Positions 41,850-52,528 of a DNA stretch of 64,000 nucleotides are shown here, piece after piece (the first letter of the stretch is position 1; the number at the start of each line of letters is the position of its first letter). Both the position numbers and the translations under genes were made by a program. The stretch lies in the sequence record OR352946.1. The stretch is one strand, 5' to 3'. Under the pieces are notes generated by a model. The model worked only from the letters and a program-made list of their open reading frames with translations. It did no database searches and was not told the origin of the DNA. The DNA is from Escherichia phage AV116.

Positions 41850-42352
41850 TTAGAAATATTTTTTGTATGAATTGATTACATTTTGGTCTACATCATTATC
41901 AATTTGTGCGACAAGATAAGAACTGATTTCAACTTCCTGAGGAGCTGCTTGAACTAAATCAGAGTTCAGATATTCACGAATCCAAGGATAAGGATGTTTG
42001 GTCGGAGCATCAGTAATTGGACACGGCAAACCACACTGTTTCATACGAGACACAGTCAAGTAATCAACAAAAGCACACATACTCTGTGTATTGATACCTG
42101 GACATGTACCGTCTTTAAAGAGGTGTGCAGCCCATTCCTTCTCTTGACTATTTACTTCCATAAAAATGTCAACTGCTTCTTGTTCACATTCTTTAGCAAT
42201 TTGAACCCACTCATCACCATCAGTACCGGATTGAAGTTGACGGATAATGTACTGAGTACCCTTGAGATGGAGTTGTTCGTCACGAGCAATGAACTTCATA
42301 ATCTTTGCATTGCCTTCCATAATTTCCATATTCTTATGGAAATTAAATGTAC
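41850..42352 (-). CDS. nrdB: ribonucleotide reductase small subunit NrdB, exon 2
   Basis: exon begins GT-ACA-TTT (completing codon TGT Cys with the last T of exon 1) giving ...YVSFA-C-TFNFHKNMEIMEGNAK, like the recalled E. coli ...[21 protein letters not shown]; boundary inferred. Confidence 0.75.
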
Positions 42353-42944
42353 CGTTATGTTCGATTGAGCTCGCTAATTCTCAACCCGTTCTCTTATGAA
42401 CTGCTGCATATTACTATGCAGACCAGACTATATCACAATCCCGGAGGGATTCTCCCCATTTCGAGTCGCTTGACCCTACGTCCGAAGACTAGTCGTTGAA
42501 CCTTGCTTTGCAATTGTCGCCGTGCCATCGTTTATATGTCGATGGTGATAAATCTTTCTTTTCACAATATGGACAATTCAATTGAATTCTATTTGGATTT
42601 AATTTGCATCTGTCATTATGTTTTAGATAAAACCCAGGACCTTTACCAATGTGACCGCAGAAATCACATGTGATTTCTTTTTGTGCAGGATGGGTTCCGT
42701 TCTTAACCATTTCTAATGTTTTTGCTGATGTTCTTCCATCAGAATCTTTAGGTATAGGCCCGTTAGCATCCATCCAAATTTTTCTATAATTCAATTGTGC
42801 ATCCTCTTAAAAGTATAATCATATTTATTTTATAATATACTAATTAAAGGTGCAAGCAAAACCTTGGCTGCTAGTTTTCCTATAAAGGACTTTCCAGCAA
42901 TTAAAGGAGTTTTCGATAAACGTTACCGTTTAAAGGCGCATTTT
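42353..42944 (-). mobile_element. group I intron in nrdB (about 592 nt)
   Basis: interrupts the NrdB frame; 3' core shares GACUAUAUC and GGGUCAAG-GACUCGAAA-type elements with the td intron; ends ...AACAUAACG; carries a short ORF. Confidence 0.75.
42489..42794 (-). CDS. intron-encoded zinc-finger ORF, probable truncated homing endonuclease (I-TevIII-like)
   Basis: 101 aa with CxxC...CxxC pairs (CDFCGH, CPYCEKK); too short for an intact HNH endonuclease. Confidence 0.45.
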   Translation of the reverse strand: MNYRKIWMDANGPIPKDSDGRTSAKTLEMVKNGTHPAQKEITCDFCGHIGKGPGFYLKHNDRCKLNPNRIQLNCPYCEKKDLSPSTYKRWHGDNCKARFND

Positions 42945-43620
42945 ACGCAAAAGATACATAAAAACGAATAGCTTCCAATGCATTGATGACATGCAAACAA
43001 AGATAAAGAGATTTCATTAGGTCTCGTTTAGCTTCGGTCTCTTGTTTAATAGCTCGGTTTAAACGAAGGTCGGCATCAGGAGATTCTTTAGCTTGTTCTA
43101 CAAATTCTTTAGCATTTTCCCAATTACGAGTCTTGACTAGAACATCATCATAATATTTACCTATTGATTCAGCTCGTTTCATGATTGCTTCGTCTAATAC
43201 AATCTCATCAAATACTTTGGATGGATCGGTATAAAGATTTCGCATAATATGAGTATACGAACGAGAGTGAATAGTTTCACTGAATGTCCATGTTGCAACC
43301 CACGTATCTAATGAAGGGTCGGAAAGCAGTGCCATAAGTACCGCAGATGGGGCCCTGCCTTGGATAGAATCTAATAATGATTGATACTTAAGGTTGTTTG
43401 TAAAGATGTCCTGTTGGAACTGAGGAAGCTTATTGAACTGGGCCGAATCCAGCATCAGGTTTACTTCTTCTGGTCGCCAGAAAAACGACAATTGCTTTTC
43501 AATAAGTTCTTCAAAAACTTTATGTCGCTGAATATCATAACGTGCGAGGCCAAGACCAGAACCAAAGAACATTGGTTCATTCAAAACATCGACTTGTTGT
43601 GTGTTAAAAACTGTACTCAT
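42945..43620 (-). CDS. nrdB: ribonucleotide reductase small subunit NrdB, exon 1
   Basis: 225 codons plus 1 nt; frame runs into a stop 1 codon after ...IRFYVSFA at the intron junction. Confidence 0.8.
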
Positions 43621-43675: not shown

Positions 43676-45940
43676 TTAAAGCTTACAAGCAGAACAATCT
43701 TCAGCTTTAGGTGTTTCTAATTCATAGTCATCTGTACCTGACCCATCACGAGTGTTATGATAGTAGAGGTTTTTTCCGCCAAAGTACCAGAAGTAAAGCA
43801 GATCGTCAAGCATTACTGACATTGGCACTTTACCTTTCTCAAATACTGCAGGGTCATAGTAAGTATTAGCAGAAGCAGATTGGCACACCCATTTCAACAT
43901 GATAGCAACTTGGGTCAAATAAGGTTTATTACCTTTCTTAGCAAGTTTCCACGCGTAGTCGTAAAGACTCATGTTATGTTCTATATTAGGAACAACCTGT
44001 CGGAAGTTGCCTTCTTTAGATTCTTTAATACTTACAGGTCCACGAGGTGGTTCTATACCATTTGTGCTATTTGAGACTTGACTGCTTGACTCACAAGGCA
44101 TGAGTGCAGACAACGTTGAGTTACGAATTCCATGTTCTTTGAGTTCAGCTCGAAGTTCTTCCCAGTCACAGACATAGTTCGGGGCTGCGATTTGGTCAAT
44201 CTTTTTATTGTACCAGTCGATAGGTAATTCGCCTCTAGACCATTTAGTGTCTGAATAATACTCACAAGGTCCTTTTTCTTTGGCGAGTTTGATTGATGCT
44301 TTGATAAGGCCATATTGCAATCTCTCGAACAATTCATGGGTCAAATCGTTAGCGTCTTCATATGAAGCAAAGTTAGAAGCTAACCATGCAGCATAGTTCG
44401 TCACACCAACACCGAGATTTCGACGCTTTTTAGCTTTTAAAGCTTCTGGAACCGGATAATCTTGATAGTCTAACAGGTTATCAAGTGCACGTACTTGTAC
44501 TTCAGCAAGTTCATTAATTTTATCTTGGTCTTGCCAATCAAATTTATCTAATACAAAAGCAGATAATGTGCATAAACCAATTTCAGCATCAGGACCATTC
44601 ACATCATTAGTTGGAATAGCGATTTCACAACATAAGTTACTCTGACGAATTGGAGCTTTTTCACGAATAAACGGAGTGTAGTTATTCGTGTTATCAACAA
44701 ACTGTGGATAAATTCGAGCAGTGCCAGAACGTTCAGTCATGAACAATTCAAAGAGTTCTAGTGCTTTGATTCTTTTCTTTCTGATTGTTGGGTCTTTTTC
44801 AGCTTTCTCATAAAGCTCACGGAATTTATCTTGATCTTCAAAGAACGAGTAGTATAGTTCACCTGACATTTCGTGAGGGCTAAATAAAGTAATATAATCA
44901 TTTTTACCAAGGCGTTCCATCATAAGGTCATTAATCTGAATTCCGTAGTCCATATGTCGAATACGGTTTTCATCCACGCCTTTGTTATTTTTCAGAACTA
45001 ATAGGTTCTCTACTTCTAAGTGCCACATCGGATAATACGCTGTAGCAGCACCACCACGAATACCACCTTGAGAACAAGATTTTACTGCAGTTTGGAAATG
45101 TTTCCAGAATGGAATAACACCTGTATGTCGAACTTCACCCGTACCGATCTTAGAACCTTCTGCACGAAGCATACCAACGTTGATACCGATACCAGCTCGT
45201 TTAGAAATATATTCAATAATTGATGCTGAAGTTTTGTTAATAGATTTTAACGAATCACCTGCTTCAATAACTACACAACTAGAGAACTGGCGAGTTGGAG
45301 TACGAGCACCTGCCATAATTGGGGTTGGCAATGAAACTTGATGAGTAGAAACGGCATCATAAAAACGAATAATATGTTTCAAACGGTCATGAGTTTCGTC
45401 TTGGTGTAAGGCCATGCCAATAGCCATGATAGCAAACTGGGGAGTTTCATAAATCTTCCCAGTTGTTTTATCTTTAACTAGATATTTTTCTTTAAGCTGC
45501 ATAGCACCAGCATAAGTCAGGTCAAAGTCTCGTTCATGTTTAATCTGTGAATCGAGATAAATGATTTCTTCTGCTGAATATTGAGACAACAGCTCAGGGT
45601 CATATTTGCCTTCATTAACACAGTAAGAAATATGGTCTATAAAAGCAGGCGGTTCAAACTGCCCATATACATCTTTACGAAGTGCAAACATTAGCCCTTT
45701 GGCGGCGACATACTGATAATCAGGTTCTTCGACAGAAATCAAGTTAGCTGCAACTTTAATACAAATCTTCTGAATATCTTTGGTGCTCATCCCGTCGACA
45801 AGATGGGTCTTAATTTCTTCATACAATTCGTATGGGTCGATTTGTGTTCCTTCACACTGCCAAGTTAATACTTGAATAATTTTCTGTGCATCAAAATTTT
45901 GGGATACACCTGAATTTTTCACTACTTTAAAATTATACAT
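43676..45940 (-). CDS. nrdA: ribonucleotide reductase large subunit NrdA
   Basis: 754 aa; active-site region NLCCEIA; T4 NrdA size. Confidence 0.95.
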   Translation of the reverse strand: MYNFKVVKNSGVSQNFDAQKIIQVLTWQCEGTQIDPYELYEEIKTHLVDGMSTKDIQKICIKVAANLISVEEPDYQYVAAKGLMFALRKDVYGQFEPPAFIDHISYCVNEGKYDPELLSQYSAEEIIYLDSQIKHERDFDLTYAGAMQLKEKYLVKDKTTGKIYETPQFAIMAIGMALHQDETHDRLKHIIRFYDAVSTHQVSLPTPIMAGARTPTRQFSSCVVIEAGDSLKSINKTSASIIEYISKRAGIGINVGMLRAEGSKIGTGEVRHTGVIPFWKHFQTAVKSCSQGGIRGGAATAYYPMWHLEVENLLVLKNNKGVDENRIRHMDYGIQINDLMMERLGKNDYITLFSPHEMSGELYYSFFEDQDKFRELYEKAEKDPTIRKKRIKALELFELFMTERSGTARIYPQFVDNTNNYTPFIREKAPIRQSNLCCEIAIPTNDVNGPDAEIGLCTLSAFVLDKFDWQDQDKINELAEVQVRALDNLLDYQDYPVPEALKAKKRRNLGVGVTNYAAWLASNFASYEDANDLTHELFERLQYGLIKASIKLAKEKGPCEYYSDTKWSRGELPIDWYNKKIDQIAAPNYVCDWEELRAELKEHGIRNSTLSALMPCESSSQVSNSTNGIEPPRGPVSIKESKEGNFRQVVPNIEHNMSLYDYAWKLAKKGNKPYLTQVAIMLKWVCQSASANTYYDPAVFEKGKVPMSVMLDDLLYFWYFGGKNLYYHNTRDGSGTDDYELETPKAEDCSACKL

Positions 45941-46580
45941 AATAATTCCATGTTGGATAATTTGATGATTTTAGACGGCGTCTAACCGTTTGGGTGCTCA
46001 TAGATAAAATTATTGACGCTTCATTTAATGTATCATATATTACGTCGTTTATAATTACTTTCTTTGCAAATGGATTCTTAGCTCCTATCATAGCGTTAGA
46101 AATAGCTTGCTTAGTTGATTCTTTTAATGGGACTCCTTTAGAAATTTTTGTTTTAATTTTTATATTGTATTGTCCGCGTTTTTTACCTAATAAAGAATTT
46201 CGTATCTTTTCTTTAGTCTCTTCAGATTTAACATGTCCTAGTTTGGAACGAGATATTTTATCTTTTGTTTTTTGGTCTAATTTTCGCCCTTTAAGCAAAT
46301 CAACCATTTTTGCTCTAGCCCATCCAAATTCTTTATTATTTCTAGAACTCATTAAATTAACCGCGGTTGCTAAACCTAAATTGTTCGGATATATTTTTAA
46401 TAAAAGAAGATGAGCCAAATAATGTTCTGAATATGTTAATTTAACTAGATTGTATGACTCATTGGTGCCACCTAAACATTTTGGGATTATATGATGCCAT
46501 TCACCATCGATATCTTCAAAATTTCTTTCTTTATTTACTAAGTTTTTATATATTTTTAAATAATCCATAGTATAATCCAC
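45933..46580 (-). CDS. free-standing HNH homing endonuclease (Mob-like)
   Basis: HNH motif EWHHIIPKCLGGTNESYNLVKLTYSEHYLAH; first ATG at 46568 gives 211 aa; 8-nt overlap with nrdA start. Confidence 0.75.
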   Translation of the reverse strand: MDYTMDYLKIYKNLVNKERNFEDIDGEWHHIIPKCLGGTNESYNLVKLTYSEHYLAHLLLLKIYPNNLGLATAVNLMSSRNNKEFGWARAKMVDLLKGRKLDQKTKDKISRSKLGHVKSEETKEKIRNSLLGKKRGQYNIKIKTKISKGVPLKESTKQAISNAMIGAKNPFAKKVIINDVIYDTLNEASIILSMSTQTVRRRLKSSNYPTWNYYV

Positions 46581-46899: not shown

Positions 46900-47211
46900 T
46901 TATACCGCCATTTTAGCTTTGATAGCTGGATGTGATTCGTAATTTTTAAGAACGAAATCAGAATGTGTCATCGTTCCGGTAACCCAGTCCATTTGGATTT
47001 TTGTAGGCCAATTCTCAAAATTACTAGGCCAATTAATTTCAAGAGAACATAACTCTTTAGGTTCACGACGAAGAACTTCTTTGCATTGTTCTACATGATT
47101 GCTGTAGATATGCGTGTTGCCGCCTGAGAACACTAAATCACCTGGGATAAGGTTACACATCTTCGCTACAATATGTGTCAAGGCAGCGTACGAGGCGATG
47201 TTGAACGGTAG
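46900..47211 (-). CDS. td: thymidylate synthase Td, exon 2
   Basis: exon begins CUACCGUUCAA as in T4; the ATG of the track ORF is the last 3 nt of the intron; encodes LPFNIASYAALTH... Confidence 0.9.
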   Translation of the reverse strand, partial: LPFNIASYAALTHIVAKMCNLIPGDLVFSGGNTHIYSNHVEQCKEVLRREPKELCSLEINWPSNFENWPTKIQMDWVTGTMTHSDFVLKNYESHPAIKAKMAV

Positions 47212-48227
47212 CATTATGTTCAGATAAGGTCGTTAATCTTATCCCGGAATTATATCCAGCTGCATGTCACCATGCAGAGCAGACTATATCTCCAACTTGT
47301 TAAAGCAAGTTGTCTATCGTTTCGAGTCACTTGACCCTACTCCCTAAAGGGATAGTCGTTAGGCATTTATGTAGAACCAATTCCACTTATCAGATTTTAC
47401 ACGGTAAGTAACTAATCCTGATGAAATTTCAAAATGTCTAGCCGCATCGGCTGCACATTCAAAAATAATCCCATCGCATGAAATCTTTTTGATGTTAGCT
47501 GGCTTTTTGCCTTTCATCTTTTCAGATAGTTTAGTTTTAGTTTTTTCTGAATGTTTGTGATTAAAGAACGGGTTATTTTCACCTGAACGTTTTCGGCACT
47601 TTCCACAAGTATCGGCCGAAGATGGTATGCGAACACCGCATTTACAAAACTTGTGGTTTTCTGGATTCCATCGGCCATTTTTACTTCCGTGTTTACCATA
47701 AAGAGCTTTCCGACCATCAGGACCAAGCTTAAGCATCTTAGCTTTAACAGTTTCAGCTCGTTTCTTAGCAATTTCTTCTTTTAATGGATGATTTGAAAGC
47801 ACATCGCCAAAAGACGCATCAGCAATATTATATCCATTAATTTTAGAATTTAGCTCTTTAATCCAAAAATTTTCTCGTTCAATAATCAAATCTTTCTCAT
47901 ATGGAATTTCTTCCAGTATAGAGCATTCAAAAACATTACCATGTTTATTAAAAGACCTTTGAAATTTTATAGAAGAGTGAACACCGTTTTCAAGGTCTTT
48001 AAAATGTCTCTTCCATCTTTTCTCAAAATCTTTAGCACTTCCAACATACACTTTACCGTTTAAAGTGTTTTTAATCTGATAAATTCCGCTTTTCATAAAC
48101 ACCTCTTTTTATATAGAAGTATTTATTAAAGGGTAGTCCTACAATTTAGCACGGGATTGTCTACTAGAGAGGTCCCCCGTTTAGATAGATTACAAGTATA
48201 AGTCACCTTATACCTAGGCCTAAATTA
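47212..48227 (-). mobile_element. group I intron in td (1016 nt)
   Basis: 5' end UAAUUUAGGCCUAGGUAUAAGGUGACUUAUACUUGUAAUCUAUCUAAACGGGG and 3' end ...CUGAACAUAAUG match the T4 td intron as I recall it; length 1016 nt as in T4. Confidence 0.9.
47359..48096 (-). CDS. intron-encoded GIY-YIG homing endonuclease I-TevI
   Basis: 245 aa from ATG (MKSGIYQIKNTLNGKVYVGSAKDFEKRW...), SD AAGAGGTG; track adds two codons from an upstream GTG. Confidence 0.9.
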   Translation of the reverse strand: MKSGIYQIKNTLNGKVYVGSAKDFEKRWKRHFKDLENGVHSSIKFQRSFNKHGNVFECSILEEIPYEKDLIIERENFWIKELNSKINGYNIADASFGDVLSNHPLKEEIAKKRAETVKAKMLKLGPDGRKALYGKHGSKNGRWNPENHKFCKCGVRIPSSADTCGKCRKRSGENNPFFNHKHSEKTKTKLSEKMKGKKPANIKKISCDGIIFECAADAARHFEISSGLVTYRVKSDKWNWFYINA

Positions 48228-48776
48228 ACCTAAGAAAACATCTACACTGCGTTGATACCATTGTAAATCAAGATGACCATTACGCACATTGAACTGATAG
48301 AACATATGGCAAGGAGGAAGAGCCATTTGATTTATTTCAGCCGGATTCCAGGCAGAAACAATTTGACGACGATCAGTTGGTAATTTTTTAATACGGTCGA
48401 TTGTTTCAACTAATTGGTCTACACCACCAAAATCACGCCATTGCTTACCATAAATAGGACCAAGTTCGCCGCTATGATATCCAAGGTCTTTTGCCTGATT
48501 TTCATAGTTGTCGTCCCAAATAGTTTTACCTTGAATAAGACTACCATGAGTACGAATACGCAAATCATTAACATTGGTAGAACCAGACATGAACCACAGT
48601 AACTCGGCAATACAAGCTTTCCATGCTAATTTCTTAGTTGTTACTGCAGGAAATCCTTTAGTAAGGTCCCAACGTAATTTAGTTCCGAACAGGGCAATAG
48701 TGCCGGTACCTGTACGGTCGTCTGTTTCGTAGCCATTTTCTAAGATATCTTTAATCAGGTATTGGTATTGTTTCAT
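48228..48776 (-). CDS. td: thymidylate synthase Td, exon 1
   Basis: 183 codons ending ...DVFLG at splice site CUUAGGU|UAAUUUAGG; active-site PCH motif present. Confidence 0.9.
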
Positions 48777-51197: not shown

Positions 51198-51851
51198 TTA
51201 ATACTTACATGATTTGATTGTTTCTATGAACAATTTCTTAGCAGCATTTCTATCGATTTGAAGTATTTTTCGATATGCCTTTAATTTGGTAGAATAATTT
51301 TGCCAGACTAAGTTATCGGTGAGTTCGTCGTGCTTATCTATAATATTCAAAAACGAGTCCAACAATAAGAAAGTCTCAAATGAAATTATATTGCTTTGTA
51401 GCAATTTGAATATGTAGCTCGACTGAACGTTGCTATTATAATCAAATATCTCTTGAAGCGCACTAACTTCAACTTTCTTACTGAAATAGTAGATGTTACG
51501 TACGTCTTCAGCAAACGTCTCCTTGGCTTGTTTGAGACGTCCAATATATTCCCTATAGAAAACTAATGCATCAGCGTCTGATATCTCACCAATCCATGCG
51601 TCTTGGTTAGCAACTAAGTTGCTTATGAATATCAAGGTGAGTTCCTTCAATTTATATTTCTCTGCTAGTTTTTCAAAGAAATATTTATCTCGGCGTTTTT
51701 GATACGCATTATCCGAAACACGCATGCACCAGTTATATTTGATTACGTCATACCGACCACCAAAGTGGTTTTTGCACATCAAGTATAGTTTATATACTGA
51801 TTTTCCATTAATATAACGTTCTCCGTCAGGAGGCATGCGTATTTTAATCAT
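51198..51851 (-). CDS. 59: helicase loader gp59
   Basis: 217 aa, T4 gp59 size and position upstream of gene 32. Confidence 0.9.
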   Translation of the reverse strand: MIKIRMPPDGERYINGKSVYKLYLMCKNHFGGRYDVIKYNWCMRVSDNAYQKRRDKYFFEKLAEKYKLKELTLIFISNLVANQDAWIGEISDADALVFYREYIGRLKQAKETFAEDVRNIYYFSKKVEVSALQEIFDYNSNVQSSYIFKLLQSNIISFETFLLLDSFLNIIDKHDELTDNLVWQNYSTKLKAYRKILQIDRNAAKKLFIETIKSCKY

Positions 51852-52528
51852 AGTTCCATCCAGGCCATTTTGAAGATTTAAGTCTATATGTAACTAAAGA
51901 CGCAGAAATATTAAAAACATTTGAAACTTCTTTACACGAGGCGTATTTTATACCATCAATAATTATAGGTTTTTGTTTTTTAATAGTTCTTTCTTTAGAA
52001 TGCGGCTTTGAATTTGCTATTCTAAGAGCTTCTTTGGTTGAATCAGGCATCGGCTTATTCGTTTTTCGCCCTTTTCGGACTTTACTCAAGGCCAATTTGT
52101 GAGCTTCAGATAGTTTCTTACCCTTATTAGGTGACGGTATTTTTCTTTCTAGTCTTGTTTTAGATACTTTAGCCTTAGTCTCTTCAGATCTAGGTTTACC
52201 TAATTTAGAAAGTGAAATAGGACCTTTTAGCTTCATCACTTTGTTTTTTACCAGGACCACCTTTACCACCGGGAACTAAGTTATAAGTATCATCTCGCAA
52301 AACAAAATCTTCATTAACCAATTCTGCTTCTTTTTTATAGGCGTCCTTGTCATTATCATATTCATAAAGAATTTCGGTATAAAAATTTTTTAGTCCATAT
52401 TTAGCTTTGGCCGCTAATATAGCGCGGCCTGATCCAATATACCAATCTTTCTCTTTATGTTTTTTGTGTACGCCTATATAAATTTTACCATTTATTTTAT
52501 TGGTAGTTTTATACACAACGTATTTCAT
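51844..52528 (-). pseudogene. Seg-like GIY-YIG homing endonuclease split by a frameshift at an A6 run
   Basis: N-terminal ORF (52205-52528, 107 aa) has GIY-YIG-like YKTTN..KIYIGVH; C-terminal ORF (51844-52269, 141 aa) has the K/S-rich DNA-binding region; frames overlap 65 nt around minus-strand A6 at 52244-52249. Confidence 0.6.

Follow-up and report, generated by a model that had tools for sequence, protein, structure and literature searches.

An nrdB group I intron carrying an I-TevIII remnant with an in-frame internal deletion in the Mosigvirus Escherichia phage AV116

The interrupted nrdB gene

The window analysed here is a 64 000 nt stretch of Escherichia phage AV116 (OR352946.1), a Mosigvirus (RB69 group). 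Its minus strand carries a T4-type gene run, rnlA - denA - nrdB - nrdA - (HNH ORF) - td - frd. Within this run nrdB appears as two ORFs, one of 225 codons at 43620..42943 and a second one terminating at 41850, both on the minus strand. Evidence from the ORF list, translation and alignment with the Escherichia coli R2 protein places the exons, and identity with T4 and RB3, the Rfam model RF00028 and helix pairing place the intron, as follows.

43620..42945, minus strand: nrdB exon 1, 676 nt
42944..42353, minus strand: group I intron (IA2, T4-type), 592 nt
42352..41850, minus strand: nrdB exon 2, 503 nt with the stop codon

Exon 1 ends in ...TTTTGCGT (also written ...UUUUGCGU), with GCGU as its final 4 nt, and exon 2 begins with GTACATTT (also written GUACAUUU). 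The intron starts with AAAAUGCGCC and finishes with ...GAACAUAACG, its terminal residue being a G (...AACG). Joining the two exons yields 1179 nt in frame, encoding a 392 aa NrdB, and the codon split between them (T and GT; U and GU in the transcript) specifies the Cys within ...IRFYVSFACTFNF... of the spliced protein. Neither exon contains stops or frameshifts. E. coli R2 and the spliced NrdB form one unbroken alignment over residues 3–388 (E = 8e-127), in which AIRFYVSFAC is conserved across the junction and the iron-site motif EGNAKI..ARDE.LH just past it. A previous sequence-only reading of this locus had placed an insert of about 592 nt at 42353–42944 and a junction of ...UUUGCGU with GUACAUUU. 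Both are exact (minus strand, 592 nt), and the junction restores the Cys codon and the FYVSFAC motif in a product collinear with R2. On homology and conserved structure, nrdB would here be one spliced gene.

Ribozyme core and intron identity

The insert shows 97.6 % identity with the nrdB intron of T4 (598 nt; annotated in NC_000866) and 98.1 % with that of RB3 (1091 nt) over the shared 587 nt, whereas the flanking exons share only 81–84 % identity with those of T4 and RB3. Identity with T4 is complete over the final 31 nt of exon 1 and the initial 63 nt of the intron, P1 included; thus, the window shares its P1 and 5′ splice site with the T4 intron that has been studied experimentally. Megablast returned 137 phage records with the insert at the same nrdB site, so it is not a chance feature, and four of them are identical over the intron, namely Escherichia phages AV109, AV114, AV115 and AV118 (Mosigvirus, pig waste, Denmark). 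Judged by its site and by homology throughout, the insert is the T-even nrdB group I intron, an orthologue of the T4/RB3 element.

The secondary structure was built by hand (P2–P9.2, with a P3/P7 pseudoknot), with pairs counted over 8 distinct alleles. The hand-built structure was used because energy folding mispairs P3, as expected for a pseudoknot; the minimum-free-energy fold of the ORF-less core recovered the local hairpins and mispaired P3. The helix map comprises the following elements.

P2: UAAACG/CGUUUA, with a GUAA loop
P3: CUCCUU/GGGGAG
P4: UGCUGG/CUAGCA
P5: UCCU/AGGA
P6 and P6a: the intron ORF is located in the P6a loop
P7: GACUA/UAGUC, pseudoknotted with P3
P7.1 (UUCG loop), P7.2 and P8
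P9 (GUAA loop), P9.1 and P9.2
42849..42944, minus strand: ribozyme 5′ half, with the guide sequence, P2, the 5′ strand of P3, P4, P5 and the 5′ strands of P6/P6a
42353..42517, minus strand: ribozyme 3′ half, with the 3′ strands of P6a/P6, then P7, P7.1, P7.2, the 3′ strand of P3, and P8
42353..42517, minus strand: ribozyme 3′ half, continued, with the 3′ strand of P7, P9, P9.1, P9.2 and the terminal G

The 5′ half corresponds to intron nt 1–96 (from the helix map and the Rfam alignment of an ORF-less allele) and the 3′ half to nt 428–592. P1 is formed by exon GCGU with intron G6–C9 (nt 6–9) and includes a U(-1).G6 wobble; P10 with exon 2 amounts to 2 bp at most. All 70 pairs of the 13 core helices can form in the window. 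Across the 8 alleles 99.8 % of the cells in the pair count hold standard pairs, the lone exception being T4's own C.A in P6a. Compensatory double changes occur in P2 (two pairs), P5 and P9, and a further five one-sided changes all preserve pairing. When partners were slid by 1–3 columns as a control, 32–42 % of positions were paired and 0 compensatory changes were seen. Support from covariation is limited to these 4 pairs, since the structure was drawn from the same sequences and most pairs are invariant. Splicing would then proceed by the usual elements of this map: the pre-mRNA would fold into the P1–P9.2 core, free guanosine would attack 3′ of exon U(-1), paired as U.G in P1, the terminal G592 would set the 3′ splice site, and exon ligation would rebuild the UGU codon for Cys and yield a full NrdB.

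At the gathering threshold Rfam gave no match over the whole window. Under permissive settings RF00028 matched 42404..42641 (minus strand) at 35.9 bits, below the cut-off of 50, so the group I model that had been proposed as a check does match the insert, yet not at a reportable score. The controls behave alike: the T4 intron scores 35.7 bits, the RB3 intron 34.0 and the td intron of the window 36.2. Natural alleles with little or nothing left of the ORF pass the cut-off for that reason, with full-length model alignments (CE1, 68.6 bits; CJY920, 71.7; SG1, 57.9). The window core (261 nt with the ORF loop removed) has only 2 differences from the CE1/RB3/JM17 core, one a base in the P8 loop and the other a G.U to G-C change in P9. 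The low score thus arises because the model cannot bridge the ORF in P6a and forces its 5′ half onto ORF sequence. Since the proven T4 intron scores alike and the ORF-less alleles pass, a score below the cut-off is not evidence against an intron, and the reading of the blank Rfam result as absence of an intron was rejected on these grounds. More generally, RF00028 at its gathering threshold misses ORF-bearing phage introns, the classic T4 ones included. The group I assignment made from the letters alone is therefore supported by the T4/RB3 homology together with a core in which every pair can form.

A second group I intron lies in the same window. The td gene (46900..48776) is split by a 1016 nt intron at 48227..47212 (minus strand), whose ORF (47359..48102, minus strand, 247 aa) has GIY-YIG, I-TevI zinc-finger and I-TevI DNA-binding domains and apparently encodes an intact I-TevI. 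In the public record of AV109 td is given as two ‘thymidylate synthase’ CDSs. The td and nrdB introns share AACGACUA, GUAGGGUCAAG(U/C)GACUCGAAA, GAUAUAGUCUG, a CUGCAU..AUGCAG hairpin and GAACAUAA(U/C)G. Their architecture is the same, with P7, P7.2, P9 and the 3′ end in common and with different P3, P7.1 and P8; direct comparison within the window thus bears out the earlier suggestion that the two introns share 3′ core elements. Separately, the 3′-most ~80 nt of the nrdB intron (42355..42445, intron nt 500–590, P9.1–P9.2) have blastn matches of 84–96 % in unrelated phages, namely Pseudoalteromonas phage pYD6-A, Providencia phage PSTRCR_114, a crAss-like phage and Pectobacterium phage PPWS1, which suggests that this 3′ module is common to other group I introns.

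The intron ORF and its deletion

The features of the intron ORF, all on the minus strand, are these.

42794..42489: I-TevIII remnant ORF, 101 aa, TTG start (translation, BLASTP, PHROG)
42510..42668: two zinc fingers, C43/C46/H59/C63 and C74/C77/H91/C95 (translation)
42735..42728: deletion junction, the sole surviving copy of the 8 bp repeat AAGAACAT (JM17 alignment)
42798..42854: P6a-loop hairpin pairing the ORF Shine–Dalgarno sequence AAGAGG (RNA fold)
42822..42829: late-promoter position, here AATAAATA, adjoining the 5 nt insertion TATAT (T4/RB3 alignment)

The ORF consists of I-TevIII residues 1–22 fused in frame to residues 191–269 (of 269 aa). BLASTP against the I-TevIII of phage JM17 returns two blocks, 1–22 and 182–269, and PHROG 12324 is matched at positions 189–269 of 269. 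Its TTG start and Shine–Dalgarno sequence AAGAGG are those of the annotated RB3 I-TevIII. The Pfam HNH_3 domain of the RB3 protein (aa 4–48, E = 1.9e-11) has no counterpart in the window ORF, the H-N-H motif having gone with the deleted residues 23–190; because the motif is absent on testing, the ORF is regarded as an I-TevIII remnant and not as an enzyme. The zinc fingers of I-TevIII follow the motif C-x2-C-x12/13-H-x3-C and its dimerisation interface lies at residues 194–241 (PMC1865063). Both fingers are complete in the remnant, corresponding to C211/C214 and C242/C245 of I-TevIII (RB3 numbering), and the dimerisation region is retained. The minimal DNA-binding domain starts at residue 166 (PMC1865063), and its residues 166–190 are deleted here. 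In design the remnant resembles the I-TevIII construct 194C, which binds two zinc ions and dimerises but neither binds nor shifts the homing site (PMC1865063), with a 22-residue N-terminal tag added. The remnant is thus predicted to be catalytically dead and is probably unable to bind the homing site or other DNA. The sequence-only reading had described a 101 aa ORF with two CxxC pairs as a truncated I-TevIII-type endonuclease. The ORF and the pairs stand, the latter belonging to two complete zinc fingers, and I-TevIII is indeed defective; the lesion, however, is an internal in-frame deletion of codons 23–190 and not a terminal truncation. With its endonuclease lost the intron would be a non-autonomous passenger, retained, it is proposed, because NrdB needs splicing.

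In I-TevIII a late promoter lies in the loop of a hairpin that sequesters the ORF ribosome-binding site (PMC2988022). The hairpin over the ribosome-binding site is intact in the window (-15.1 kcal/mol, z = -4.27). The late promoter of T4 and RB3, TATAAATA, has 19 matches in the window and none within the intron, and a scan of the intron for sigma-70 promoters and terminators found nothing above shuffled expectation. These signals point to poor expression of the remnant ORF. The promoter change predates the deletion, since JM17 shares it.

Relative to RB3 the window intron lacks 504 nt, which is 168 codons (23–190), so that the deletion is in frame. JM17 (Mosigvirus, PP400779, pig feces, Denmark) has exons 96.8–97.5 % identical to those of the window and a full-length intron of 1096 nt, in which each end point of the deletion bears a copy of AAGAACAT, and the copies are spaced by exactly 504 nt. 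The window and JM17 have in common the 5 nt TATAT insertion, the late-promoter T-to-A change and two further markers, and differ by 6 substitutions in the ORF, 4 of them synonymous. On these alignments the simplest account is that the stretch between the direct repeats was lost in one step in a JM17-like ancestor, and with it the H-N-H motif and the N-terminal portion of the minimal DNA-binding domain. Among matching records the window-type junction occurs only in the four phages AV109, AV114, AV115 and AV118, and an exact search of IMG/VR viral contigs for it found none. T4 has a different, frameshifting deletion of 491 nt, with GGAAGAA joined to CATAAGAAAAGAACATC, a junction common to Manna, Lv5cm, FL23, F26 and G8. 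Introns of 592 nt occur in FL23, F26 and G8 too, and these were considered as carriers of the window's deletion. This was rejected, as they carry the T4-type 491 nt deletion plus separate deletions of 6 nt and 2 nt, and by their sequences the equal length is coincidence. As a separate observation, the I-TevIII of JM17 (L019, 951..1760) has Tyr for Asp at residue 23 (GRTYEIHH against GRTDEIHH), immediately ahead of the H-N-H histidines, and the base substitution responsible also generates the left-hand AAGAACAT copy.

Two other accounts of this allele concern its derivation and its product. The T4 junction reads GG-AAGAACAT-AAGAA-AAGAACAT-CAGC, and loss of one repeat unit gives exactly the window sequence, so a T4-type frameshifted allele could have had its frame restored by a second deletion of 13 nt between the AAGAACAT copies. 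This route is highly improbable: the window has the RB3 base at 7/7 positions at which T4 and RB3 differ, the 5 nt insertion and three point changes that it has in common with JM17 are found in none of the T4-type alleles examined, and JM17, with exons ~97 % identical to the window, has the 8 bp repeat at both end points. The product, for its part, might be a maintained small dimeric zinc-finger protein, acting as an intron-operator autorepressor or a regulator of transcription arising in the intron, or as a dominant-negative heterodimer partner of the full-length I-TevIII of a co-infecting phage. The deletion did keep the frame, the native TTG start and Shine–Dalgarno sequence, the 22 N-terminal residues, both fingers and the dimerisation interface (residues 194–241); 4/6 substitutions relative to the JM17 ORF are synonymous, and the independent deletion in T4 also kept the finger region. 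However, an in-frame deletion is expected by chance in 1 case in 3, and the synonymous fraction is weak (~P = 0.04 before transition bias), with substitutions that may be older than the deletion. No DNA binding is seen with construct 194C, and the altered late promoter and intact ribosome-binding-site hairpin argue for little expression. The finger region is partly or wholly lost in other alleles (SG1, CE1, CJY920), and the 3′ terminus of the ORF is under constraint in any case because its last 8 codons and stop overlap P6a′, P6′ and P7. A maintained function is thus very unlikely, and an inactive remnant left by one deletion between direct repeats in a JM17-like allele is preferred.

Proposed acquisition by homing and subsequent decay

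Uninterrupted nrdB genes in RB69, JS09, AV110 and vB_Eco_mar005P1 are 91.8–93.4 % identical to the window exons. The idea that all close nrdB relatives are intronless was rejected, since the Mosigviruses JM17, JM10 and G2469 carry the full-length intron; the search for relatives had joined pieces at most 1089 nt apart, so that genes with an intron of 1091–1096 nt were split and ranked low. As G2469 (full intron) and vB_Eco_mar005P1 (intronless) are conspecific, presence of the intron is polymorphic within a species. Between JM17/JM10 and RB3 the introns are 99.6–99.7 % identical, against 82–87 % for the exons. Next to the intron the exons carry a short tract of T4/RB3 bases.

42945..42982, minus strand: putative co-conversion tract, exon 1 part, with T4/RB3 bases at -2, -8, -14 and -38
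42333..42352, minus strand: putative co-conversion tract, exon 2 part, T4-type at +20 and Mosigvirus-type from +23 onward

The window, JM17 and JM10 have the T4/RB3 base at -2, -8, -14, -38 and +20, sites at which 4/4 intronless Mosigvirus genes have another, synonymous base. Mosigvirus bases return in both the window and JM17 farther from the intron, at -47 and -59 and from +23/+32. The T4-type tract is therefore ~60 bp long and brackets the I-TevIII cut site, cleavage being at -14/-16 (PMC1865063). Such a tract is as expected for co-conversion during double-strand-break repair, and we infer that the intron entered Mosigvirus by I-TevIII-mediated homing. The -2 base also completes a G-C pair in P1, so selection on splicing may have contributed at that position. 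Given the one full-length relative, JM17, homing would have come first and the deletion later. Recent lateral transfer of T-even introns is already published (Sandegren & Sjoberg 2004, as cited in PMC2993671). In the first 23 nt of exon 2 (42330..42348) the window differs from JM17 at three synonymous positions, +5, +11 and +23; the A at +5 and U at +11 match the Gelderlandvirus S16 and the U at +23 matches intronless Mosigvirus genes. These differences may represent a second short conversion patch, or simply mutation.

Entry by another route, and failure of the intron once in place, were also weighed. The defunct T4 intron is mobilised in trans by the free-standing endonuclease MobE (PMC2790892), and the window encodes a free-standing HNH protein by nrdA whose N-terminus is 47 % identical to RB3 MobE; entry by MobE-type trans-homing, or by ordinary recombination, would dispense with the intron's own I-TevIII. 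Trans-homing by MobE, however, carries mobE into the recipient along with a converted 5′ region of nrdB. In the window exon 1 keeps Mosigvirus-type sequence in its 5′ part, and between nrdA and nrdB lies a 55 nt gap without mobE. With the T4-type tract centred on the I-TevIII cut site and a full-length I-TevIII ORF retained in the close relative JM17, entry without I-TevIII is unlikely. As to failure of the intron, the identical AV109 sequence is recorded with two separate ‘beta subunit’ CDSs and no join, and Rfam reports no intron at the gathering threshold. Both would suit an insert that is dead for splicing and an nrdB that is broken, its fragments non-functional or the phage reliant on the host enzyme. 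Against this, all core helices are intact, core differences from the T4/RB3 alleles are loop changes or improve pairing, the exons are free of stops and frameshifts with a spliced product collinear with E. coli R2 over its full length, and the T4 control has an equal Rfam score; a broken nrdB is thus extremely unlikely. The favoured reading remains a self-splicing T-even nrdB intron in a Mosigvirus, its I-TevIII inactivated by a 504 nt in-frame deletion, for which the probability is put at about 0.93.

The free-standing HNH homing-endonuclease-like ORF (45933..46580, minus strand, 215 aa) overlaps the start of nrdA. Its 47 % identity to RB3 MobE covers the N-terminal 77 aa; NUMOD3 and I-TevI-type DNA-binding motifs are present at the C-terminus. 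A further ORF of 141 aa (51844..52269, minus strand) has an I-TevI-type DNA-binding domain only (aa 97–140), with no catalytic-domain match, and may be a second decayed homing endonuclease.

The T4 nrdB intron with its defective I-TevIII was described by Eddy & Gold (1991), as cited in PMC2988022 and PMC2993671. The window intron has the same nrdB insertion site, P1, 5′ splice site, core (97.6 %) and P6a-loop ORF as T4, and the outcome is also the same, with the HNH half gone and the zinc-finger half kept. Unlike T4, its deletion is 504 nt and in frame instead of 491 nt and frameshifting, it has RB3-type bases at T4/RB3 polymorphisms, a 5 nt insertion and an altered late promoter, and it lies in a Mosigvirus, not a Tequatrovirus, with no mobE adjoining nrdB. 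The RB3 intron is mobile and encodes an active 269 aa I-TevIII (Robbins et al. 2007, PMC1865063). Its ORF start, Shine–Dalgarno sequence, hairpin, zinc fingers and ribozyme core recur in the window, but codons 23–190, including the H-N-H motif, do not. With JM17 the window shares genus, exon background, TATAT insertion, promoter T-to-A change and co-conversion tract; JM17, with its whole ORF, is distinguished by the absence of the 504 nt deletion, of the 6 ORF substitutions and of the 3 changes within exon 2 nt 1–23. SG1 (420 nt), CE1 (304 nt) and CJY920 (309 nt) have the same ribozyme and insertion site with the ORF in progressive loss, and since their ORF is mostly or wholly gone, the window allele stands at an earlier stage of decay. 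Intron sizes in the series are 1091–1096, 595–599, 592, 420 and 304–309 nt, with at least 4 different deletion events.

The records of AV109, AV114, AV115 and AV118 give nrdB as two genes with a ‘homing endonuclease’; on the present evidence the correct annotation is a single spliced nrdB interrupted by an intron whose ORF is defective. Introns are not mentioned in the published description of the AV phages. What is new here comes down to three points: a second, independent, in-frame deletion allele, its likely progenitor, and the Mosigvirus background. Beyond correct annotation the significance is small, as the element is ordinary, already understood and unsurprising to a specialist. It is one clean example of the known life cycle of homing elements, from invasion through endonuclease decay to ORF loss, in which a progenitor-like full-length allele (JM17), a deletion via 8 bp direct repeats and a short co-conversion tract can be seen together.
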